Shown here one piece after another: positions 1 through 19,386 of a DNA stretch of 64,000 nt. The DNA is from Dethiobacter sp. (GTDB lineage: Bacteria > Bacillota > Dethiobacteria > DTU022 > UBA8154). Position numbers and translations under genes: made by a program. Where the stretch lies: assembly GCA_003605065.1 (NCBI GenBank), contig QZJM01000049.1:208-64207 (forward strand). The letters run 5' to 3'. The number at the start of each line of letters is the position of its first letter. Position 1 is the stretch's first letter. Under the pieces are notes generated by a model that was given only the letters and a program-made list of their open reading frames with translations, was not told the DNA's origin and searched no databases.

Positions 1-539
1 TATATCAACACCATAAGGTTCAAGTAAATCCAGTGCCGTAATAATATTCTCCTGATTTAACCCCCCCGCAAGAATAAGGGGGATAGTCCTTTTATAAAAA
101 GGCCTGGCCAGTCGCCAATTGAAAGTTTGACCTCCTCCACCCTTTTTATCTGTATATTTAGTATCCAGTAGAATAGCGCTAACAAGGTATTCCCGGCACC
201 TTTCTAGTGATAAAGAGGACGATGCCAAAAAAGTTTTGATAATTTTATATGTGGGAAACCGGCGGCAGTACTCCGCTGTCTCCTCGCCGTGAAACTGTAA
301 GGTATCCAGCCTGCAATAAGCAGCAATCTCTCTTACTTTTTCGTCTTCTTCGTTGACAAAAACGCCCACTTTCCCGATAAAAGGAGGCAGTTCCTTGATA
401 ATAGCTGCCGCTTTTTCAGGACTTATCCGGCGGGGACTGGCAGCAAAGACAAATCCCAGAGCATGAACGCCTTCTTCCACGGCTGCCAGAGCCTCCCGGG
501 GAGTAGTAATACCGCAGATCTTAACGCGTACAGGACACA
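1..539 (-). CDS. trpF: phosphoribosylanthranilate isomerase (TrpF), C-terminal part cut by window edge
   Basis: Minus-strand translation from the ATG at 539-537 (MCPVRVKICGITTPREALAAVEEG...) matches the PRAI N-terminus. It overlaps the trpC stop by 19 nt. It is absent from the ORF track because it runs off the window. Confidence 0.8.
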
Positions 540-1327
540 TCTTCCCCCAGCAGCTCCTTTATTTTGGCAACAGGATCGCTACTGCTCATAAGGCTATTAC
601 CAACAAGAATAGCATTCACTCCCAACTCTTTCAACTGCTTCACCTGCTCCCGGCAGTGAATACCGCTCTCCGAAATCAAAACCCTGTCGCGGGGAACATA
701 GGGACCCCATTCAAGAGTCCTCCTAAGATCAATCTCCATAGTATGGAGGTTACGGTTATTGATACCTATGATCTCCGCCCCCGCCTGTACCGCCCGAAGA
801 ATTTCTTCCTTTTTACCTACTTCTACTATGGCAGCCATTCCCAGCTCGTGGAGCAACTGCAAAAATCTTTTTAACTCCGTAAAAGCCAGTAGAGAGGCAA
901 TAAGCAGGACAGCATCTGCTCCCATGGCCCTGGATTCATAAATCTGGTACTCATCCACGATAAAATCCTTACGAAGGACAGGTATGCTTACAGCACTCTT
1001 AGCGCTCTTTAGATCTGCAGGACAGCCGGCAAAATATTTTGCCTCTGTTAACACAGATATGGCCGCTGCGCCGGCTTCCTGGTATAAAAGGGCGATTTCG
1101 GCCGGGCTTTTAACCTGTGCAAAATGAGACTCAATTACTCCGCAAGAGGGGGAGGCTTTTTTAATCTCCGCTATAATGCTTAGCTGCGGAAAACGCTTTT
1201 GAACTGCCTCTTTAAAGTTTCTTGCCGGAGAGATTAAAGGCAGCTGCTTGATTATTTCCTCCAGGGGATATTCTTTTTTCTGCCTGATAACTTCCCTCCA
1301 TTTATGAGCAGCTATCTCTTTAAGCAT
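521..1327 (-). CDS. trpC: indole-3-glycerol phosphate synthase
   Basis: 268 aa with the IAEIKKASPS, LRKDFI and INNRNL motifs typical of IGPS. Start overlaps the trpD stop. Confidence 0.9.
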   Translation of the reverse strand: MLKEIAAHKWREVIRQKKEYPLEEIIKQLPLISPARNFKEAVQKRFPQLSIIAEIKKASPSCGVIESHFAQVKSPAEIALLYQEAGAAAISVLTEAKYFAGCPADLKSAKSAVSIPVLRKDFIVDEYQIYESRAMGADAVLLIASLLAFTELKRFLQLLHELGMAAIVEVGKKEEILRAVQAGAEIIGINNRNLHTMEIDLRRTLEWGPYVPRDRVLISESGIHCREQVKQLKELGVNAILVGNSLMSSSDPVAKIKELLGEDVSCTR

Positions 1328-2375
1328 GAGCTCTTCCCCCTTCTATCCTCCTGGCAGATTCCCGCCGGTACGAGGAAAACTCCACCAGGGCCTGAAGTTT
1401 TTCATAAGCCGCTCCTGAATCAATAGATTTTTTTGCCAGCTCAATCCCTTCCCTGATACTTGAGGCCAGGCCGGAAACGTACACAGCCGCTCCCGCATTT
1501 AGTAAAACAACATCCCGGTATGGCCCTTTTTCCCCTTTCAGTACCGCCAAACAGGAATAAGTACCCGCTGCAGTATCCCCACCCTTCAGAGACCTCATCG
1601 AAACCCTGGAAAAACCAAAATCTTCCGGTGTAATAATATAGCTTTGTATGTTCCCGTTTTTCATTTCCGTTACTTTAGTCTCTGCCGTAAGTGTAATTTC
1701 GTCCAAGCCATCCCCACCGGCTACCACCAGGACATGTTCGGAGCCCGAAGAGGCCAGTACCGCAGCCATTTTTTCTGTTAACGCCGACTCGTAAATTCCC
1801 AGCAGCTGCCTTCTTGCTCCTGCCGGATTATTCAAGGGGCCCAGGAGATTAAAGATGGTCCGCACTCCCAGAGCTTTTCTTGCCGGGAGCGCATGGGCCA
1901 TAGCCGGGTGTAATAAAGGTGCGTACAAAAATCCCAGGCCGATTTCATTGAGACAATGCTCTAGATCTCCAGTAGACAATTCCAAATTTATGCCTAAAGC
2001 TTCACAGAGGTCTGCACTACCGCACTGCCCGGACACAGCCCTGTTTCCGTGCTTGGCCACCGTTATCCCGGCTCCGGCTGTAACAAAGGCGCTCACCGTA
2101 GAAATGTTAAAGCTCCCCTTGCCGTCTCCCCCTGTACCGCAGGTATCCACCAAAGGAGTCCTGGTAACGGAAATTTTAATGCTATGTTCGCGAATGGCCT
2201 GGCAGCTCCCCAGTATTTCATCTACGGCCTCACCTTTGCAACGAAGGGCGACAAGATAAGCAGCAACTTGAGCCTCTTTAAATTCACCTTTCATTACCTG
2301 TCTCATGACCTGGTAGGCCTCTTCACAAGTTAGATTTTCGTGATGTATCAACTTTTCCAGGAAATCTTTGATCAT
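1320..2375 (-). CDS. trpD: anthranilate phosphoribosyltransferase
   Basis: 351 aa with DTCGTGGDGKGSFNIST and AKHGNRAVSGQCGSADLCEALG motifs. Confidence 0.9.
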   Translation of the reverse strand: MIKDFLEKLIHHENLTCEEAYQVMRQVMKGEFKEAQVAAYLVALRCKGEAVDEILGSCQAIREHSIKISVTRTPLVDTCGTGGDGKGSFNISTVSAFVTAGAGITVAKHGNRAVSGQCGSADLCEALGINLELSTGDLEHCLNEIGLGFLYAPLLHPAMAHALPARKALGVRTIFNLLGPLNNPAGARRQLLGIYESALTEKMAAVLASSGSEHVLVVAGGDGLDEITLTAETKVTEMKNGNIQSYIITPEDFGFSRVSMRSLKGGDTAAGTYSCLAVLKGEKGPYRDVVLLNAGAAVYVSGLASSIREGIELAKKSIDSGAAYEKLQALVEFSSYRRESARRIEGGRAHA

Positions 2376-2378
2376 TTT

Positions 2379-3041
2379 TTAACCCGGGATTACTCCAGGG
2401 TGTTCACCTCCTGCAGAATGATTACGTTTAAAGGTTTCCCCTTTAATCTTTAAATTCTCTTCAGTGGTAATAAGGCCGGAAATCAGGCAAAAATTAGCCA
2501 GGATCATACGTCCCCGGGGAGTAAACAGGGACTCGGGGTGAAACTGCAACCCTATCAGATTGCGATAAAGTTTATGCCGGATAGCCATAATTTCCTCCTC
2601 CTCCGTGGCCGCGATAACTTCCAGAGAGGAAGGCAAGCCCCCGGCCAGGATAAGAGAATGATAGCGCATGGCCTCGAAAGGTGAATCTACCCCTTTAAAA
2701 ATGCTGTCCCCCTGATGGTAAACAAGAGAAGTTTTTCCATGCATAAGGTGAGAAGCTCTCACAACCCTGGCGCCAAAGTAAGCCCCGATAACCTGGTGTC
2801 CCAGGCATATACCCAAAATAGGAAGACGGTTTTTAAAAAAACCCACCGCTTTCAAGCTCAACCCGGCGGTGGAAGGCTCTCCCGGTCCCGGCGAGATAAC
2901 AACAGCCCGCAAAGGCATCTCTTCCAGCTCTTCCAGGTTAAAAGCATCATTGCGGCGAACATCCACGTCCAGCCCCATAGAACCCAGTTCTTGAGCCAGG
3001 TTAAAAGTAAAAGAATCGTAATTATCGATAATTAAAATCAT
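2379..3041 (-). CDS. trpG: anthranilate synthase component II (glutamine amidotransferase TrpG/PabA)
   Basis: 220 aa class-I GATase with ILGICLGHQ (Cys nucleophile). Overlaps the trpE end. Confidence 0.88.
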   Translation of the reverse strand: MILIIDNYDSFTFNLAQELGSMGLDVDVRRNDAFNLEELEEMPLRAVVISPGPGEPSTAGLSLKAVGFFKNRLPILGICLGHQVIGAYFGARVVRASHLMHGKTSLVYHQGDSIFKGVDSPFEAMRYHSLILAGGLPSSLEVIAATEEEEIMAIRHKLYRNLIGLQFHPESLFTPRGRMILANFCLISGLITTEENLKIKGETFKRNHSAGGEHPGVIPG

Positions 3042-4557
3042 TTTCCCACTCCTCGGCTAAGCTTATGGCCCGTAAAGAACTGGCCATTTTATGTTCTGTT
3101 TCTTCATACTCCCTGCAGGGGTCAGAATCAGCTACAATTCCTGCCCCGGCCTGAATAAAAGCCTGGCCGTGATCGAACAACAAAGTCCTTATCGTGATAC
3201 AGGTATCCATATCCCCGTTAAAGCCCACATAACCTACGGCCCCGGCATAGGGCCCCCGGGGAAGCGGTTCAAGTTCAGCGATAATTTCCATAGCTCTTAC
3301 CTTGGGCGCACCGGAGACCGTTCCCGCGGGAAAAACAGCACGTAAAAGATGGGTAAAATTGTATTCCGGACGGATTTTTCCCCTGACTTCGGAAACAAGG
3401 TGCATAACATGAGAAAAATATTCTATCTCCAGCAACTTGATTACTGCTACGCTGCCGTAACAACAGACTCTCCCCAGGTCATTTCTGCCCAGATCCACCA
3501 GCATCATATGCTCAGCCCTCTCTTTTTCATCTTTACTGAGCTCTGCAGCCAGGGAAAAATCTCTTTTTTCGTCCTGACCCCGCGGCCTGGTCCCGGCGAT
3601 AGGCTTAGTATAAGCCAGGCCCTTCTCAAGCCTTACCAGCATCTCCGGTGAAGAACCTATCATTTGAAAATGAGGAAAGAAAAGATAAAACTGGTAAGGT
3701 GAAGGGTTCAGGCTGCGCAGAGCGCGGTAAATATTAAACGGAAGGGCTGCCGTTTCCTGTTGCGCTTGCCTGGAGAGCACAACCTGGAATATCTCTCCTG
3801 CCCTTATATATTCCTTGGCCCTGTTAACCGCTGCTATAAAGCTAGCTTTGGTAAACGACCGTCTAACCCCCAGATCGGTGGAAAGGTCACTACAAGAAGC
3901 AACTTTCTCCAACGCATCCCCCTCCATACAACATTGATAACCTTGCCCTTGATTAACATTATTTAAAATATTTTCCAGCTCCTTGGAGGCCTTCTCATAA
4001 ATGTTCTCCAGATTATCTCTGTTGTTATTTATGGAGGCCACGTAAACAGCTGTTAAGAGATGCTTCTTGTGATCATAAATAAAAACTTTGCGGGGGAAAT
4101 AAAAATAGCACGAAGGCCACCTGCTTTCCTCCTCTATACCTGGCACTTTCTCCCACCGCTTAACCATATCATAAGAGAGATAGCCAACGGCTCCACCCCA
4201 GAAAACGGAAAGCTCCTCTGGTTGATAAACATGTAAGCTTTTAAAAATATTCTCTAAAACGTTCAGCGGGTCATCTCCCGAACGCCATCGTTCTCCATTC
4301 TCTTCCTGAACAACCGTGTCACTGCCCAGGGTATAAAGGGTTAAAAAGGGCTCGCTTCCGATAAATGAATACCTGGACTTTTCCCCCAGTTCCCCGCTTT
4401 CCAGCAAAAAGCTCTCCCTGCAATAGGAAGCCAGCTTGACATAGAGAGAAATAGGGGTCTCCAGGTCGGCCGGAACTGTTTTAAATACAGGTATGATATC
4501 ATAATCTTTGCCCAGCCGATTAAATGTTTCCCTATCCGGTTTAATCAATCGCCGCAC
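3022..4557 (-). CDS. trpE: anthranilate synthase component I
   Basis: 511 aa chorismate-binding enzyme (GTRPRG..., LVDLGRNDLGRV motifs). The track start is GTG at 4557. A better-spaced TTG at 4548 follows an AAGAGGTG RBS. Confidence 0.88.
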   Translation of the reverse strand: MRRLIKPDRETFNRLGKDYDIIPVFKTVPADLETPISLYVKLASYCRESFLLESGELGEKSRYSFIGSEPFLTLYTLGSDTVVQEENGERWRSGDDPLNVLENIFKSLHVYQPEELSVFWGGAVGYLSYDMVKRWEKVPGIEEESRWPSCYFYFPRKVFIYDHKKHLLTAVYVASINNNRDNLENIYEKASKELENILNNVNQGQGYQCCMEGDALEKVASCSDLSTDLGVRRSFTKASFIAAVNRAKEYIRAGEIFQVVLSRQAQQETAALPFNIYRALRSLNPSPYQFYLFFPHFQMIGSSPEMLVRLEKGLAYTKPIAGTRPRGQDEKRDFSLAAELSKDEKERAEHMMLVDLGRNDLGRVCCYGSVAVIKLLEIEYFSHVMHLVSEVRGKIRPEYNFTHLLRAVFPAGTVSGAPKVRAMEIIAELEPLPRGPYAGAVGYVGFNGDMDTCITIRTLLFDHGQAFIQAGAGIVADSDPCREYEETEHKMASSLRAISLAEEWENDFNYR

Positions 4558-4646
4558 CTCTTTTCCCAGCTATAATTTTAATTAAATAACCAGGCAAAAT
4601 AAATTGGGGAAATTAAATCTACCCCATTAAACAACCACTTCGGGTG

Positions 4647-5489
4647 CTAAGACTGGATATTCAATGGGAGAAAGCCCACACCGGAGTAAAAGTCAGAAAC
4701 CCGCAACCCGGAGTTCCACACTATCTTCTTTGTAAGAAATTCAAAAAGATAGGGATTGAGCACTTTAAGATAAGTACCCTTCCCCCCCAGCGAACGAGAT
4801 TCAATTACTCCGGCGCATTCAAGCTTCCGTAACGCGTTAGCTATTACCGAACCAGCTATACCCAGTTTTCTGGTTACGAGGATTCCTTCGTTATTACCAA
4901 GTTTTTCAAAAACATGTTCCACTGCCTCCCGCTCCGAACAAGAAAGCGTATCAAGTGCCAGTCTGAGAACTTCTTTATAGCGCATCTCTTTTTCAGTTTC
5001 CTCTACTTTTAAGCGCAGCATCTCCATGCCGGTAATAGCTGCCCCATTTTCAGCAAGAATTACGTCTTCAACCCCGAAAAGCCCGTCAAAGCGTACCAGA
5101 ATTACAGTGCCCAGCCGTTTACCACCGCCGATAATCGGAATTTCCGCAACAATTTTATCAGTATAAGGGCATGATTGCCCTTCAAGAAAAATACAGTCCT
5201 GAGGTTTTTGCTGCAGGTTAATTTTTAATTCATTGCTTTTTAGGAGATACTTGTTATATCCCTCCGGAAATCGCTCCTTTTGTACCAGGTTTATCATAAT
5301 TTTACATTTAAAATTGTCTACAAGGGCATACCCTTTAATTGATCCTTGAAGATCGGCAATATAAACACTGGCATGGATAACATTTTTAAGGACCCCGGCA
5401 ATATCTTTAAAACTGATATGCTGTCCTGCTGCTTCCTGAAGAATTTTGTTAATACAACGGATTTTCTTTAATAAGGAAGAAGTAATCAT
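4647..5489 (-). CDS. codY: CodY-family GAF + winged-HTH transcriptional regulator (paralog embedded in trp operon)
   Basis: The C-terminal region VILAENGAAITGMEMLRLK...EREAVEHVFEKLGNNEGILVTRKLGIAGSVIANALRKLECAGVIESRSLGGKGTYLKVLN aligns almost residue-for-residue with the B. subtilis CodY HTH domain, and the N-terminal GAF-like region (PIIGGGKRLGTVIL) also aligns. It carries a ~20 aa C-terminal extension. A 215-bp gap lies upstream. Confidence 0.8.
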   Translation of the reverse strand: MITSSLLKKIRCINKILQEAAGQHISFKDIAGVLKNVIHASVYIADLQGSIKGYALVDNFKCKIMINLVQKERFPEGYNKYLLKSNELKINLQQKPQDCIFLEGQSCPYTDKIVAEIPIIGGGKRLGTVILVRFDGLFGVEDVILAENGAAITGMEMLRLKVEETEKEMRYKEVLRLALDTLSCSEREAVEHVFEKLGNNEGILVTRKLGIAGSVIANALRKLECAGVIESRSLGGKGTYLKVLNPYLFEFLTKKIVWNSGLRVSDFYSGVGFLPLNIQS

Positions 5490-5704
5490 TTCTTTACCTT
5501 CTTTCTTTCACTTCTCATTTTTAAAAAAGGCGTAGGTTTTGCCAGCCGTCCCACATGAAATATAGGGCCGGAACTATGAGAAAAAGGGCACACCCAGTAA
5601 GAATGCCGTGACAAATAGTATTTCCTATGTGATTGCGAAATCCTACCCTGAAAGGCCGGTAAGGTATCCACCTGCGATTATTAGAACGCCTCCCGTTAGA
5701 TGGT

Positions 5705-6499
5705 TCACAGCAGGGTTCCGGTTTCCACTAGCGCCTTTTTTACAGAGCAAATAAATTCGAAAACAGCCGGTTTCCAGTCCTTTTCGCTGCCCATTAAATG
5801 GACAATACTGCTGCCGATGATCACGCCGTCTACACTAACTGCCACCTCTGCCGCCTGCTCCGGGGTAGAAATACCAAAACCCATACATAATGGTTTGGCT
5901 GATAATCTCCTGACTTTGGAAACTAACCTGTTTAATCCTAGGGGAAGGTTTTTTCTCATGCCGGTAATCCCTGTAACCGAAACAAGATAGATAAACCCCC
6001 GTGAACGTTGTGCTATCTCTTTAATGCGATGCTCAGGGCTGGTAGGAGCAATAAGAAAAATTAAGTCGAGGTTGTACCCTAAGGTGGCTTTTTCCAGAAG
6101 ACCGGCCTCATCTAAAGGTAAATCCGGAATAATCAATCCATCGATACCGGCACAGGAAGAGTCAGCGCAAAAAAGATCTAAACCATAGCGAAAAACGGGA
6201 TTATAGTAGGTCATAAAAAGTAGTGGAATATCCACTTTCTGCCTGATGAGGCGGGCAGTCTCCAGGCACTTAGCCGGAGTTATACCATTTTGCAGGGCCT
6301 TATAGCTGGCCTGCTGGATGGTTACCCCATCAGCCATCGGATCGGAGAAAGGAATGCCCAGTTCAACCACGTCTACGCCGCATTTCTCCAGCAAAGGCAC
6401 TGCCTCCAGGGTTGCCTCAACGGTAGGATAACCTACTGTAACAAAGGCAATAAGGGCAGCATGGTCCCGTCCGGCAAAAACAGAAGCAAGGCGTGTCAT
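5705..6499 (-). CDS. trpA: tryptophan synthase alpha chain
   Basis: 264 aa with [22 protein letters not shown] and GFGIS motifs. Overlaps the trpB stop. Confidence 0.92.
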
Positions 6500-7716
6500 G
6501 ACCCCACCTCCGGCATTTTACTAATAATGTCCATATCTTTATCTCCTCTTCCGGAAAGGTTAACGACAATAACCTGTTCCCGTTTTAGGGAACCGGCCAG
6601 CTTAAGGGCATGAGCGATGGCGTGAGCAGGTTCCAGGGCCGGTATGATTCCCTCTGTGCGGCTGAGCAAGTGAAAAGCCTCCAGAGCATAACGGTCCTCC
6701 ACGGCCACATATTGAGCACGACCGGTATCTTTAAGAAAACTGTGTTCCGGGCCCACACCGGGGTAATCCAGACCGGCCGAAATACTGTGAGTGGATAAAA
6801 TCTGGCCGTCCTCATCCTGCAGCAAAAAAGATTTCGCCCCCTGCAGCACCCCTACTTTTCCTGCAGTCAGAGAAGCGGCGTGTTTGTTACTCTCCAGACC
6901 CTGCCCCCCTGCTTCCACACCGATGAGCTTTACCTGTGGATCGTTTAGGAAAGGGTAAAAGATACCCATAGCGTTAGATCCACCTCCTACGCAGGCCAAT
7001 ACATAGTCAGGCAAAGCACCTCTCGCACCCAGAATTTGTTCCCTTGCCTCTCTCCCAATGACTGCCTGGAAATCGCGGACCATCAGGGGGTAGGGATGCG
7101 GCCCCACAACTGAGCCCAGCAGGTAGTAAGTGCTCTGTACATTGGTCACCCAGTCACGGAAAGCTTCATTAACGGCATCTTTAAGGGTCCTGGCCCCGCA
7201 TGTAACCGCTTTTACCTCCGCTCCCAAAAGCCTCATGCGAAAGACGTTGGGAGCCTGCCGGTGTACATCCTCTTCTCCCATATAAACAACACACTCTAAT
7301 CCCAGTAAGGCAGAGACGGCAGCAGCAGCAACACCGTGCTGGCCCGCCCCTGTTTCGGCAACCAGGCGTTTTTTTCCCAGCCTTTTGGCCAGCAGCCCCT
7401 GCCCCAAGGCGTTGTTGATCTTGTGCGCTCCCGTATGCAAAAGATCTTCCCGTTTCAGGTAAATGCAAGCACCTCCCTGTAGCTCGCTGAGTCGCTTTGC
7501 TTCATAAAGAGGAGTGGGACGCCCAGACCAGTGCCTTGATAAATGGTAAAATTCCTCCTGAAAGGCCGGATCCTCCCTGGCCCCGCAGTACGCTTCGGTA
7601 AGCTCTTCCAGGGCAGGGATCAACACTTCGGGGACAAACCGCCCTCCAAATTCTCCATAATAACCACGTTCATCCGGCATCATGTCCATTTCAATCCCCC
7701 TTTTACTGCACGACAA
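6496..7716 (-). CDS. trpB: tryptophan synthase beta chain
   Basis: 406 aa with [17 protein letters not shown] (PLP lysine) and GGGSNAMG motifs. Confidence 0.93.
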
Positions 7717-7719
7717 ACT

Positions 7720-8388
7720 CTACACCTGGTATCGCCGCGCCGCTTTGATAAATTCCCGCACCTTTGCTCTATCGAGCTGCTTTCCTGAAATAACAGAGGA
7801 AAAGGCATCCACTGCATATGGCTGTACCTTTCTAACTGCCTCTGCTACATTATGTACATGCAATCCACCCGCAAGGATGAGGGGCTTGGGCCCGATAGCA
7901 TCTTTGATGCGACGGGCCACATCCCATGCCACGGTTTTACCGGTGGACCCGACTTTTCCTTCACCGTAGCTGTCCAGCAAAATTGCATCTGCCCCGGCTT
8001 TTATATAGTCCAGGGCACAGCGTTCGGGTCCATCCCCTCCTGCCAGACAACCTCCCTGGAAATGAAGGGTTTTAATAATCTTAATGTTAAGTTTCTTCTT
8101 GAGAGACACAACATCTTCCGGAGTATTAAATCCATGCAGCTGCACCGCATGGGGATAAACGTATTCTACCATGCGGCAAACCTCTTCAACCCGTTCCTCG
8201 GTGAGGATAAGGATGCCGGATACCATTGGAGGGATAAGGGCAGAGAGTTCTCGTGCCTCCTCAAGGGAAAGCCGGCAGAAAATTTCCTGCCTTACCTCGG
8301 TAATCAGACCGATGGCATCAACCCCCTCCTCCACCAGCAGCTGGATATCTCCTGCATTCCTACTGCCGCAAAGCATCACCCTGGCCAT
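7720..8388 (-). CDS. trpF: phosphoribosylanthranilate isomerase, second copy
   Basis: ORF 7720..8412. The likely start is the ATG at 8388 (MARVMLCGSRN...), one base after the trpC2 TAG stop. PRAI-like TIM barrel (ILAGGL, VDAFSSV). Confidence 0.8.
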   Translation of the reverse strand: MARVMLCGSRNAGDIQLLVEEGVDAIGLITEVRQEIFCRLSLEEARELSALIPPMVSGILILTEERVEEVCRMVEYVYPHAVQLHGFNTPEDVVSLKKKLNIKIIKTLHFQGGCLAGGDGPERCALDYIKAGADAILLDSYGEGKVGSTGKTVAWDVARRIKDAIGPKPLILAGGLHVHNVAEAVRKVQPYAVDAFSSVISGKQLDRAKVREFIKAARRYQV

Positions 8389-8389
8389 T

Positions 8390-9139
8390 CTAACTCCCTC
8401 CTGCCCGCACAAGAAAGGAAACCGTCCCGGCAGGATCCCCGGAGAGCATCAAGGCAGTACCGACCAGCACGGCATCAGCTCCGGCCTCGATGGAACATCT
8501 TATATCTGCTGCACTCCGGTGGGCACTCTGGCTTATTATTACAGCATCTCCTGCCACCTCACGGAAGCTGGCGACAATCTCCGGGGTGATTCGGACCAAA
8601 TCTTCCCCCATCTCCAGCTCGTCAATATTTTTGTTATTTATGCCGATCATAAGTGCCTTTTCACCAAGAGTGTTCAGGTAATGCAGATCCTGCTCCCCTC
8701 TTGTTTCAATCAGAGCATGCATGCCACAGGAATAAACGTACTCCAACATAGCAGGAAGATTTTCACCCAGCAGATGTGCATGAAGAAGTAAAGTTACCCG
8801 GCCAGTAAAGGAGGGCTCCAACCTTTCCGTAATTCCCGCATAAAAGTCTACTTCCTTCCCCTCCAGGATAAAATCCTTAACAAGCAGGGGTAAAGAGGTG
8901 GCCTGCAGAACTGCAGGGATGTCTTTTTCGGGCTCTCCACCAAAATACCGGCGCTCTGTAACAAGGGAGATCCCGGCGGCTCCGCCTTTCTGGTACAACC
9001 CGGCCAGTTGGCCGGCATCCCGCTCATCGCGGGGCCGGCCACACCCGGCTGCCAGTTTGGGAATTAGTCTTTTTATCTCAGCCACAATGGGGATTACTCC
9101 CCTGGTTTGAGTGAGTCTGATTGATTCCAGCAGGTTCAA
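8390..9139 (-). CDS. trpC: indole-3-glycerol phosphate synthase, second copy (short N-terminus)
   Basis: 249 aa with IVAEIKR, LLVKDFI, IGINNKNI motifs. Starts at TTG. The in-frame TAG three codons upstream prevents a longer N-terminus. Overlaps the trpD2 end by 62 nt. Confidence 0.8.
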   Translation of the reverse strand: MNLLESIRLTQTRGVIPIVAEIKRLIPKLAAGCGRPRDERDAGQLAGLYQKGGAAGISLVTERRYFGGEPEKDIPAVLQATSLPLLVKDFILEGKEVDFYAGITERLEPSFTGRVTLLLHAHLLGENLPAMLEYVYSCGMHALIETRGEQDLHYLNTLGEKALMIGINNKNIDELEMGEDLVRITPEIVASFREVAGDAVIISQSAHRSAADIRCSIEAGADAVLVGTALMLSGDPAGTVSFLVRAGGS

Positions 9140-10169
9140 CTTCGCCTACCCCCTTTACTTCCCGGGACCTGTTACGTATTTCCAACATCTTAGCCATGGC
9201 ATTGCCGGAGTCCAAAATCTCCCGGGCCTGTGCCACCCCTTCAAAAAGGGAAGAAGCTTTACCCGCCACTACCAGTGTGGCCGCTGCATTCAACAGCAGC
9301 ATATCACGTTTAGGGCCGGTCTCCTTCCCGCTAAAAATATCCAGGATAATCCTGGCATTGAACTGCGGATCACCCCCCCGGATCTGATCGATAGTACAGC
9401 GCTTCATACCAAAATCTTCCGGGACAATGGTATAATTTTCTATCTTTCCTTCTTTGATCTCCGCTATACTGGTCTCTCCAAGAAGTGAAATTTCGTCGAT
9501 ACCATCAAGGCCGTGAATAACCATGGCATGGGTAAAATCCAGCTCAGCTATTACCTCCGCTACCTGTTCTATCAGCCGGGGCTGGTAAACTCCCAAAACG
9601 TGTCTTTTGGCATTGGCAGGGTTTATGAGAGGACCGATGATGGTAAAAAAAATAGTTTTAATACCAAGATCGTTTTCTGGAGTAAATACTTTCATCATCA
9701 CCGGATGGAAAAGAGGAGCATAGAGGAAAGAAAAACCCACTTCTTCAATTAGCATCTCCGCCTGGCGGGGCTCAAGCTCAACCTCTATTCCCAGAGCTTC
9801 CAAAACATCGGCGCTTCCCGAAGAAGCAGAGATAGAACGCGATCCGTGCTTAGCAATCTTTACGCCAGCTGCGGCAGAAAGCAGGGCATTGGCGCTGCTA
9901 ACATTGAAAGTGGTAAGCCCACCACCCGTTCCACAGGTATCGGTTAATTCACCGTTAACCAGCGGCCTGATAGGAATACAGGCTTTACGCATTGCCCTGG
10001 CAATAGCCGCTATTTCACCGGTAGTGGGACCTTTCATAAGGAGGGCCATCAGGAATCCCGCTATTTGTGTTTCCGAAAAGCGATCTTCTTTAATACCAAA
10101 GATCAGATCATCTATTTCATGTTGGTACAGCTCTAGTCCCCTGGACAATTTTTGTAAAATCTCTTTCAT
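9078..10169 (-). CDS. trpD: anthranilate phosphoribosyltransferase, second copy
   Basis: 363 aa with DTCGTGGGLTTFNVSS (Gly in place of the usual Asp after GTGG) and AKHGSRSISASSGSADVLEALG. About 33 aa C-terminal extension. RBS GAGAAAGGAG upstream. Confidence 0.8.
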   Translation of the reverse strand: MKEILQKLSRGLELYQHEIDDLIFGIKEDRFSETQIAGFLMALLMKGPTTGEIAAIARAMRKACIPIRPLVNGELTDTCGTGGGLTTFNVSSANALLSAAAGVKIAKHGSRSISASSGSADVLEALGIEVELEPRQAEMLIEEVGFSFLYAPLFHPVMMKVFTPENDLGIKTIFFTIIGPLINPANAKRHVLGVYQPRLIEQVAEVIAELDFTHAMVIHGLDGIDEISLLGETSIAEIKEGKIENYTIVPEDFGMKRCTIDQIRGGDPQFNARIILDIFSGKETGPKRDMLLLNAAATLVVAGKASSLFEGVAQAREILDSGNAMAKMLEIRNRSREVKGVGEVEPAGINQTHSNQGSNPHCG

Positions 10170-10299: not shown

Positions 10300-10612
10300 A
10301 TAAATTAAAAAAGCCTCTTGCCCAAATAAGGACGAGAGGCTTGCTTTCGCGGTGCCACCTTAATTGCCGGTAAAAATAATTAACCAGCATCTTTCTCAGG
10401 TACGGCCCAAAATTGCGTGGGCGATACCCTGAACTCTGCTAACGGTGCTCACTCCGGCAAAAACTACTAGGTAATAACCGTTCGTCATGCAATTCTTGAG
10501 TCCATTCGCTCTCTGCGCCTGGACCGGGCTCACACCTTTTCCCGGTTCTCTGGGCCTTCGCTCGAGAGTTACTAGTCTCATTCATAATTTTTTACATTAT
10601 GATGTTAGTTCT
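10300..10612 (-). promoter_or_regulatory. T-box riboswitch leader, putative Trp (UGG) specifier, with intrinsic terminator
   Basis: Minus strand reads AATTAAGGTGGCACCGCGAAAGCAAGCCTCTCGTCC...GGCAAGAGGCTTTTTT (T-box 14-mer plus terminator). Stem I carries AGAGAG-CGAA-UGG-A-CUCAAG, matching the GAA-codon-A specifier context. A second GC hairpin plus U-run lies at about 10241-10260. Confidence 0.75.
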
Positions 10613-18969: not shown

Positions 18970-19300
18970 AGATCAAAAAACTTCCATCCCATAGGGACGG
19001 AAGTTTAATCTTCACGCGGTACCACCCTGGTTAGGCACATAGTGCCCCCCTCTTATTAGAGTACGGACCAGAATTTTCCGCCCGATACCCTTAATACATA
19101 GTGCTTTTCAGCAGTGGTGTCAGGTACGGACTGAAAGCATTCCAGTCTTATACCCCCTTCCTTTTAACGGTGGAAGTTTCCGTCAAAGCCTACTAACCGT
19201 TAAGGCGTTATCGGCTTTCGGTTTGCTTCTCAGGAGTGTATTTCAGCAATTTAGGACACCGGGTCGCACCATCCCCCGGCTCTCTGAGATCCGTTTATTA
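18970..19300 (-). promoter_or_regulatory. T-box riboswitch leader (complete), putative Tyr (UAC) specifier, terminator 18974-19006
   Basis: Minus strand reads AACCAGGGTGGTACCGCGTGAAGATTAAACTTCCGTCCCTATGGGATGGAAGTTTTTT. Upstream are an F-box-like CCGTTAAAAGG and a Stem I carrying AGAGAG...GAUGGUG...GAAAUACAC (AA-UAC-A). Confidence 0.7.
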
Positions 19301-19386
19301 CCTACTTCTCTCCGTCATCGCTTTACTTAATTTTCTTGTACCGAACCGATGTTTAACCGGTAATACCAGCTTCTTCTCTACCTTTT

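Follow-up and report, generated by a model that had tools for sequence, protein, structure and literature searches.

A diverged CodY-family gene inserted between trpA and trpE in the aro/trp supraoperon of a Dethiobacter lineage

In a 64-kb window of Dethiobacter sp. (the whole stretch of DNA analysed here, contig QZJM01000049.1 from position 208 to 64,207, renumbered from its first letter), an intact gene of the CodY family lies between trpA and trpE inside an aro/trp supraoperon. Residues needed for DNA binding by CodY are missing from the winged helix-turn-helix (wHTH) of its product, no CodY box stands near the trp genes, and close relatives lack the insertion. We put at about even the chance that this trp-linked codY gene is an extra, lineage-specific paralogue, passively co-transcribed under relaxed or shifted constraint, which has lost canonical DNA binding and is not a dedicated regulator of trp. 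The gene and its landmarks are as follows.

4647 to 5489, minus strand: intact CodY-family open reading frame (ORF) of 280 amino acids, ATG at 5489-5487 and TAG stop at 4649-4647 (ORF list, Pfam and NCBIfam)
4947 to 5477, minus strand: GAF-like ligand-binding domain, amino acids 5-181 by Pfam, including the long linker helix at about 140-180
4734 to 4871, minus strand: wHTH DNA-binding region, amino acids 207-252
4863 to 4868, minus strand: junction of an in-frame 12-nt (four-residue) deletion in helix H7, between K208 and L209 (alignments)
4650 to 4724, minus strand: C-terminal extension, amino acids 256-280, with a counterpart in no relative (alignments) and predicted to be disordered
5705 to 6499, minus strand: trpA, final gene of the upstream set trpD2-C2-F2-B-A
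5490 to 5704, minus strand: 215-bp spacer from the trpA stop to the codY start
4558 to 4646, minus strand: 89-bp spacer from codY to trpE, AT-rich (34% GC), with a GGGG..CCCC element, TTTAATTAAA and the trpE ribosome-binding site (RBS)
3022 to 4557, minus strand: trpE, opening gene of the downstream set trpE-G-D1-C1-F1

Results

An intact CodY-family gene with reproducible junctions

ORF list, Pfam and coordinates agree on a 280-residue CodY-family gene between trpA and trpE on their strand, with a gap of 215 bp ahead of it, as an earlier note on this DNA had described; an 89-bp gap also lies behind it. The protein matches Pfam PF06018 (CodY GAF) over its full length (4.9e-47, 160.2 bits against a cut-off of 29.5, positions 1-177 of 177) and PF08222 (HTH_CodY) over profile positions 12-57 of 61 (1.3e-19, 70.0 bits against a cut-off of 27). 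Of two NCBIfam equivalog cut-offs, the score clears that of PRK04158 (276.3 against 255) and falls short of that of TIGR02787 codY_Gpos (250.5 against 267.2). Sequence E-values against solved CodYs range from about 1e-60 to 1e-42. The AlphaFold2 (AF2) model has a predicted local distance difference test score (pLDDT) of 81.5 and a predicted template-modelling (TM) score of 0.70, and the top 27 Foldseek matches in the PDB are all CodY entries (TM 0.62-0.86 for full-length chains); a CodY alignment went into building the model, which makes it weak as a test of fold. By exact-sequence look-up the protein is identical to NCBI RJX25573.1, 'CodY [Dethiobacter sp.]', from a metagenome-assembled genome (MAG), and is thus already annotated as CodY.

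Since the sequence derives from metagenome assemblies, a chimeric contig might have fused a codY fragment with trp genes. That explanation is effectively refuted. A JGI contig (3300007354) equals the window at 100% identity across 15.5 kb, and an independent Logan assembly from a different run is 99.91% identical across 14.6 kb; the trpA-codY-trpE junctions recur in both of these and in the NCBI MAG, and identical junctions are found in at least five assembly blocks. The 13 single-nucleotide polymorphisms (SNPs) of the Logan contig are spread along its length (8 synonymous, 4 nonsynonymous and 1 intergenic), and one of them, the nonsynonymous Q97K, is the single difference between the two alleles of the trp-linked codY gene.

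Lesions in the wHTH at residues that bind DNA

The winged HTH had been described as near-identical to that of CodY. It instead carries a four-residue deletion in H7 and substitutions at DNA-contact residues, and its Pfam match begins at profile position 12. In the numbering of Bacillus subtilis and Staphylococcus aureus CodY, the deleted equivalents are Ile206-Ala207-Asp208-Arg/Gln209; the protein reads LVTRK, then a gap of four, then LGIAGSVIANALRKLECAG...SLGGKG, where the clade ends in ...SLGMKG. The substitutions are T213A, R214G, V218A and M237G (T212A, R213G, V217A and M236G in window numbering), together with Y181C, which turns LSYS into LSCS. Neither the 116 diverse full-length family representatives (0/116) nor the 60 top relatives (0/60) show the H7 deletion, and Gly at position 214 is likewise found in 0/116 representatives.

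Four side chains, A207, D208, R214 and S215, are listed as indispensable to DNA binding by Han et al. (2016), who cite earlier mutagenesis (PMC5100569). According to Hainzl et al. (2023), T213 and R222 touch phosphates, V216 and V218 touch thymine methyls, the sole base-specific bonds come from S215 and from M237 of the wing, and Y181 stacks across the dimer; these DNA-contact residues are termed conserved in all CodYs (PMC10415144). The trp-linked protein keeps only S215 of the four essential residues, with A207 and D208 deleted and R214 replaced by Gly. Judged by these residues, it is most likely no longer a repressor that binds CodY boxes, and with canonical DNA binding lost it would be no dedicated trp regulator.

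No CodY boxes near the trp genes and no separate transcription signals

We searched for the CodY box AATTTTCWGAAAATT at a threshold of no more than three mismatches. The whole window holds 2 matches against 5.8 expected by chance, and none of them is near the trp genes. The best matches in either spacer or around the two T-box leaders of the operon (below) have four to six mismatches, no improvement on shuffled sequence. The proposal that trpEGDCF expression depends on CodY is therefore unsupported on two counts, the missing boxes and the missing equivalents of Ala207, Asp208 and Arg214; no result here supports control of the trp genes by this protein. Within the 89-bp spacer, TTTAATTAAA is a perfect 10-bp AT-only palindrome at 4577-4586, about 20 nt before the trpE start. 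It sits in that spacer's best CodY-box-like match, with four mismatches, and an equally good match arises in 10% of shuffles.

The spacers themselves look ordinary. The letters of the GGGG...CCCC and U-rich hairpin reported before trpE are present, but the terminator scan misses it and it is absent from the minimum-energy fold. Neither spacer folds better than shuffled sequence (z of -0.08 and +0.73), consensus promoter and terminator scans give counts that do not exceed shuffled ones with none inside the spacers, and Rfam finds no family in either spacer at E of 10 or below. From the Trp T-box leader to the codY gene the scans turned up no significant promoter or terminator. An independent promoter or terminator for the gene was thus set aside, scans and folds alike matching shuffles. 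Because no convincing promoter or terminator stands on either side, the gene would be transcribed passively with the trp genes, and co-transcription under the Trp T-box is most likely, as the simplest reading.

Other origins for the spacer sequence were also considered. A T-box remnant in the 215-bp spacer was suggested by a MAFFT alignment near GGTGG.AC and was ruled out: nhmmer with a profile of five leaders came back empty, 85/300 shuffles reach the best Smith-Waterman score, and the Rfam search at E of 10 or below finds no T-box there. The flanks show only short chance repeats, which dismisses a mobile-element footprint, and the spacer upstream of the gene holds no HslU remnant.

A lineage-specific insertion away from the canonical codY locus

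We compared 135 codY loci whose upstream sequence was long enough: hslU is the immediate upstream neighbour in 116 of them, and in none does a trp gene adjoin codY. The Dethiobacter MAGs L018 and L020 and the Dethiobacteria locus L172 have the order (topA-)xerC-hslV-hslU-codY, and the canonical CodYs of Dethiobacter and Dethiobacteria are 89-96% identical to one another and 58% identical to the trp-linked protein. Here the gene directly upstream is trpA.

A trp operon lies within 10 kb of codY in only one of the 135 loci, that of Firmicutes bacterium UBA5766 (L047:9986-19926), where a canonical dprA-topA-xerC-hslVU-codY array lies 4.6 kb upstream of trpEGDCF. Its TrpE is only 43% identical to that of the window, so the proximity is probably coincidence, and descent from an ancestral codY-trp neighbourhood of this kind was rejected.

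A search with TrpE recovered relatives at 82% (L174), 77% (L175) and 71% (L176) identity. Their gene orders are aroC-aroB-T-box-trpEGDCF-aroE-aroK-aroQ in L174, T-box-trpB-(trpA fragment)-DAHP synthase gene-T-box-trpEGDCF in L175 (DAHP, 3-deoxy-D-arabino-heptulosonate 7-phosphate) and aroQ-chorismate mutase gene-T-box-trpB-trpA-47 bp-trpEGDCF in L176. A T-box leader thus directly precedes trpE in L174 and L175, and trpA directly precedes it in L176. No codY gene stands beside trpE in L174, L175 or L176/L177, so that a conserved linkage of codY with trp, as expected of a dedicated regulator, is not seen. As these relatives have orthologous trpEGDCF without it, the trp-linked codY gene is a lineage-specific insertion. 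It fills what in L176 is the 47-bp trpA-trpE spacer, and on the sequences compared it is confined to one Dethiobacter species-level lineage. In L175 (7567-7806), only about 80 TrpA residues are detectable between trpB and the DAHP synthase gene, and trpA may be truncated there.

If this were the only codY of its genome, moved from the hslVU locus by rearrangement and then diverged, the same position would result. The window contains no second codY, xerC, hslV, hslU or topA, and in the 215-bp spacer the final ~35 nt, its RBS region, are the only part that looks like the stretch ahead of canonical codY. When Dethiobacter-type CodYs were looked up by cluster, no member from the same MAG appeared. 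We nonetheless regard relocation of a sole copy as improbable. All other sampled Dethiobacter and Dethiobacteria loci keep the slowly evolving canonical gene next to hslU; Dethiobacteria hold non-canonical paralogues besides their canonical loci, with at least one Dethiobacter MAG among the carriers; and a sole global regulator is unlikely to shed DNA-binding residues or to outpace its orthologues severalfold in rate of change.

Accelerated divergence, atypical composition and a new C-terminal tail

The closest non-self match among 5.8 billion proteins searched is 63% identical and comes from a canonical topA-xerC-hslVU-codY locus; no homologue exceeds that value. Against canonical CodYs of its own clade the protein is 58-63% identical. 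The top 60 relatives average 82% identity among themselves and 59% to it, and identity to B. subtilis CodY is 46%, compared with a mean of 60% and a minimum of 50% for 119 relatives. Of 119 alignment columns conserved in at least 95% of relatives, 26 are changed (relatives: mean 1.4, maximum 11), including 8/46 in amino acids 1-137 and 5/20 in the linker; S. aureus CodY is changed at 27 of the same columns, near the figure of 26. In a neighbour-joining (NJ) tree the terminal branch is of the longest type.

Composition sets the gene apart too. GC content at third codon positions (GC3) is 0.384; neighbouring genes have 0.46-0.53 and long ORFs of the window 0.50±0.05, and canonical codY genes have a GC3 equal to or above that of their neighbours. 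The low value fits a foreign, lower-GC origin or AT-biased drift.

The C-terminal extension (pLDDT below 50 for amino acids 256-280) points to a stop that was bypassed. Canonical Dethiobacter genes end in ...AAGAAG(A)n...AGATAG, where the trp-linked gene has AAGAAGATAGTG, and an out-of-frame TAG at 4721-4723 lies where they terminate. Since that TAG is out of frame, the stop was most likely bypassed through a deletion that shifted the frame within the Lys-rich tail. A terminator-like hairpin at 4696-4717 lies inside the coding extension; TAG and hairpin together suggest that a former 3′ untranslated region is now translated. The gene is not a pseudogene by its reading frame, which is open for 280 codons with its sole frame change at the extreme 3′ end.

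A clade-typical ligand pocket

The gene had also been proposed to encode a paralogue whose altered pocket reports aromatic amino acids. The non-canonical locus and the 58% identity, set against 89-96% among canonical Dethiobacteria CodYs, agree with a diverged paralogue; a pocket altered for aromatic amino acids finds no support. Y43, M65, F74, P75, Y78, C99 and F101 equal the clade consensus, and the only differences from the gene's own clade are V to L at 68, V to I at 100 and a one-residue deletion in the H3-H4 linker. The pocket residues are thus canonical for the clade, with no change hinting at an aromatic ligand. A canonical pocket and a lack of CodY boxes near trp are two of the three findings that the earlier note had named as counting against dedicated regulation.

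We also checked the B. subtilis criteria for branched-chain amino acids (BCAA), namely the Arg61 salt bridge and lining by Met62, Met65, Phe71, Pro72, Tyr75 and Pro99. The equivalents of F71, P72, Y75 and M62 are kept. The equivalent of Arg61 is Ile, as it is Leu or Ile in 58/60 clade members, and Arg occurs in just 9/116 family representatives, so the Arg61 criterion is not transferable to this clade. At the GTP-contact positions of S. aureus CodY (V22, F24, S43, R45, K47, E153 and K158), F24, E153 and K158 are kept and S43, R45 and K47 are replaced by Asp, Gln and Ser; positions 43, 45 and 47 vary within the clade too. The Clostridia-type CodYs of the clade have three invariant GAF cysteines (C62, C99 and C107 in the trp-linked protein) and lack Arg61 (I64 here). 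Given the cysteines and the missing Arg61, ligand chemistry in the clade may differ from the textbook model, in which CodY binds BCAA and GTP.

Two gene sets in one T-box-controlled supraoperon

The remaining features of the operon are these.

10325 to 10594, minus strand: Trp T-box leader upstream of trpD2 (Rfam RF00230, 108 bits against a gathering score of 93), specifier UGG (Trp) read from the Rfam alignment
18990 to 19327, minus strand: second T-box leader, ahead of the aro genes, specifier UAC (Tyr) read from the Rfam alignment
10169 to 9078, minus strand: trpD2
9139 to 8390, minus strand: trpC2
8412 to 7720, minus strand: trpF2
7716 to 6496, minus strand: trpB

After trpE come trpG, trpD1 and trpC1 on the same strand, then trpF1, which runs past the window start. 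A placement in the middle of the trp genes, as previously stated, is correct as to the neighbours and incomplete as a description: the codY gene stands where two gene sets meet, T-box(Trp)-trpD2-C2-F2-B-A and trpE-G-D1-C1-F1, within a larger aro/trp supraoperon, and the Trp T-box leader is the nearest recognisable control element upstream of it. Farther upstream lie the genes for chorismate mutase, aroQ, aroK, aroE, aroB and aroC, three more ORFs and the Tyr T-box leader; these three unscanned ORFs correspond, by position alone, to the L174 genes for DAHP synthase, prephenate dehydrogenase and 5-enolpyruvylshikimate-3-phosphate (EPSP) synthase. Both leaders fall within one same-strand aro/trp array of ~19 kb, and the Trp leader starts just 45 bp past the chorismate mutase gene.

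The minus strand from 521 to 10169 carries two non-orthologous trpD/trpC/trpF sets, with 40.5% identity between D1 and D2 and 32.6% between C1 and C2. Lying between the Trp T-box and trpB, trpD2-C2-F2 has no orthologue in the three closest relatives (L174, L175 and L176) and is a second lineage-specific insertion in the operon, which marks the region as prone to rearrangement.

Other CodY paralogues outside the hslVU locus

Long-branch CodY paralogues occur at several other non-canonical loci. One, in a Dethiobacter MAG (L022:1825-2658), lies between a sigma-54 activator gene and HdrD-like/FdhD genes; a second (L087:972-1757, protein P0121) is beside RACo and a sigma-54 activator; a third (L088:8001-8792, P0272) has the context feoAB-NifU-ParA/Fer4-CodY; and a fourth (L178:1487-2293, P0130) has MarR-CodY-NusG-citrate synthase. 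The NJ tree places the trp-linked protein among these paralogues, with P0130 as its sister in 107/200 bootstraps. It has only a handful of conservative derived residues in common with them, a number matched by an unrelated representative, so their common ancestry is unproven. As all four contexts are unrelated to trp, a conserved family of trp- or aromatic-linked CodY paralogues was rejected. We found no description in the literature of a trp-linked CodY or of an H7-deleted form; the precedent there for a second CodY is codZ of Lactococcus lactis (PMC3412718).

Discussion

Decay or retention

Signs of decay and of retention are mixed in this gene, and the divergence count and the neutral simulation described below point in opposite ways. 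Pointing to decay or relaxed constraint are the HTH lesions, the bypassed stop, the faster evolution, an atypical composition and the absence of any orthologue. Several observations weigh on the other side, against our preferred reading of a passively transcribed paralogue that has lost DNA binding. The GAF pocket is conserved, as is most of the recognition helix (S215, V216, I217, N219, A220, L221 and R222), and AF2 still gives a folded DNA-binding domain, with H7 cut to one turn and pLDDT 78 for the block 201-210. By domain, 75-83% of clade-conserved columns are kept. The ORF is unbroken and neither internal indel shifts its frame; in a neutral simulation restricted to substitutions, only 7% of the runs that reached 22 conserved-column changes remained open, which together with the open ORF argues for some selection retaining a protein. 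At least five assembly blocks contain the protein letter for letter. Loss of DNA binding is deduced from residues characterised in homologues, and we infer, rather than observe, a canonical codY elsewhere in the same genome. Finally, a location downstream of the Trp T-box would make the expression of any function of this gene specific to Trp starvation.

Such observations would be expected if selection had kept a neofunctionalised paralogue with its GAF sensor and dimerisation helices. Made only when tRNA-Trp is uncharged, being downstream of the Trp T-box, it could use its remodelled wHTH on a new operator, such as one in the AT-rich 89-bp spacer, or form mixed dimers with canonical CodY without binding DNA itself. 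Heavy divergence has left the ORF open, with in-frame indels, where few neutral runs stayed open; pocket, recognition helix and a confidently predicted fold persist; and so do the long-branch paralogues at non-canonical loci of related Bacillota. The T-box leader that precedes trpE in the two closest relatives is missing here, so that the codY gene occupies the place of a regulatory element. We still think neofunctionalisation rather unlikely. Other sampled organisms have no orthologue and the three close relatives lack the arrangement, the flanking spacers show neither an enriched motif nor a CodY-like box, and no pocket change hints at an aromatic ligand. The stop bypass and low GC3 resemble relaxed constraint or recent foreign origin, and the few, conservative residues in common with other paralogues do not support a maintained family.

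Less probable again, and in our view a long shot, is an 'anti-CodY' produced by read-through of the Trp T-box when tRNA-Trp is uncharged, a subunit unable to grip DNA but still able to dimerise and sense ligand, whose mixed dimers with canonical CodY would derepress the global CodY regulon, or else a protein with a new operator before trpE. Were either so, a degenerate paralogue would tie a shortage of one amino acid to a global nutrient regulator.

A possible history of the insertion

Under the preferred reading, a codY copy would have entered the short trpA-trpE spacer of a T-box-controlled supraoperon by duplication or, more likely, by horizontal transfer. It has since evolved much faster than any canonical CodY, losing four H7 residues and several DNA-contact side chains, while a frameshifting deletion most likely carried translation past the original stop. 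The gene would now most likely ride passively on trp transcription, as a paralogue under relaxed or shifted constraint and a by-product of the operon's rearrangement.

Read in this ordinary way, the locus indicates that Dethiobacteria and related anaerobes carry CodY paralogues away from hslVU, that this aro/trp supraoperon has acquired foreign genes at two points, and that pipelines name such genes 'GTP-sensing pleiotropic regulator CodY' despite missing DNA-binding residues. It also offers a natural test of how far a CodY domain tolerates loss of helix H7, Arg214 and the Met237 wing. Should the protein prove functional, it would be the first link of a T-box-controlled amino-acid operon to a CodY-family protein.

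Comparison with known systems

The T-box leaders, with their Trp (UGG) and Tyr (UAC) specifiers, are the regulatory elements truly detected for this operon. They work at the RNA level, whereas the trp-linked codY gene encodes a protein of another family with no detected tie to attenuation. RNA-level control of trp genes is also the mode of TRAP/MtrB in Bacillus.

That a genome can carry a second CodY-family gene has a precedent in CodZ, a codY paralogue of Lactococcus lactis, but CodZ belongs to another lineage, is likened here by description only, and is given no trp link in the paper that mentions it (PMC3412718). The paralogues of L022, L087, L088 and L178 are, like the trp-linked gene, long-branch CodY-family members from anaerobic or alkaliphilic Bacillota that lie away from hslVU; they differ from it in contexts unrelated to trp and in the absence of the H7 deletion.

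Its closest relatives are the canonical CodYs of Dethiobacteria and Syntrophomonadaceae-like MAGs (P0002, L018, L020 and L172), which share Cys62, Cys99, Cys107 and the pocket residues. Those genes lie next to hslU and their products have an invariant HTH and a mean mutual identity of 82%, whereas the trp-linked protein is changed at 26/119 near-invariant columns.

Compared with canonical CodY of B. subtilis, S. aureus, B. cereus and E. faecalis (PDB 5LOE, 5EY0 and 8C7U), the gene is off the xerC-hslVU-codY locus and has no CodY boxes nearby, and its product carries the four-residue H7 deletion, the HTH substitutions and a 25-residue disordered tail. Arg61, the partner of the Ile carboxylate, and S43, R45 and K47 are absent from it and from its whole clade. 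The trp-linked protein nevertheless has the same architecture of GAF domain, long linker helix and winged HTH, and it keeps Ser215, Val216, Arg222 and the Leu-Gly of the wing.

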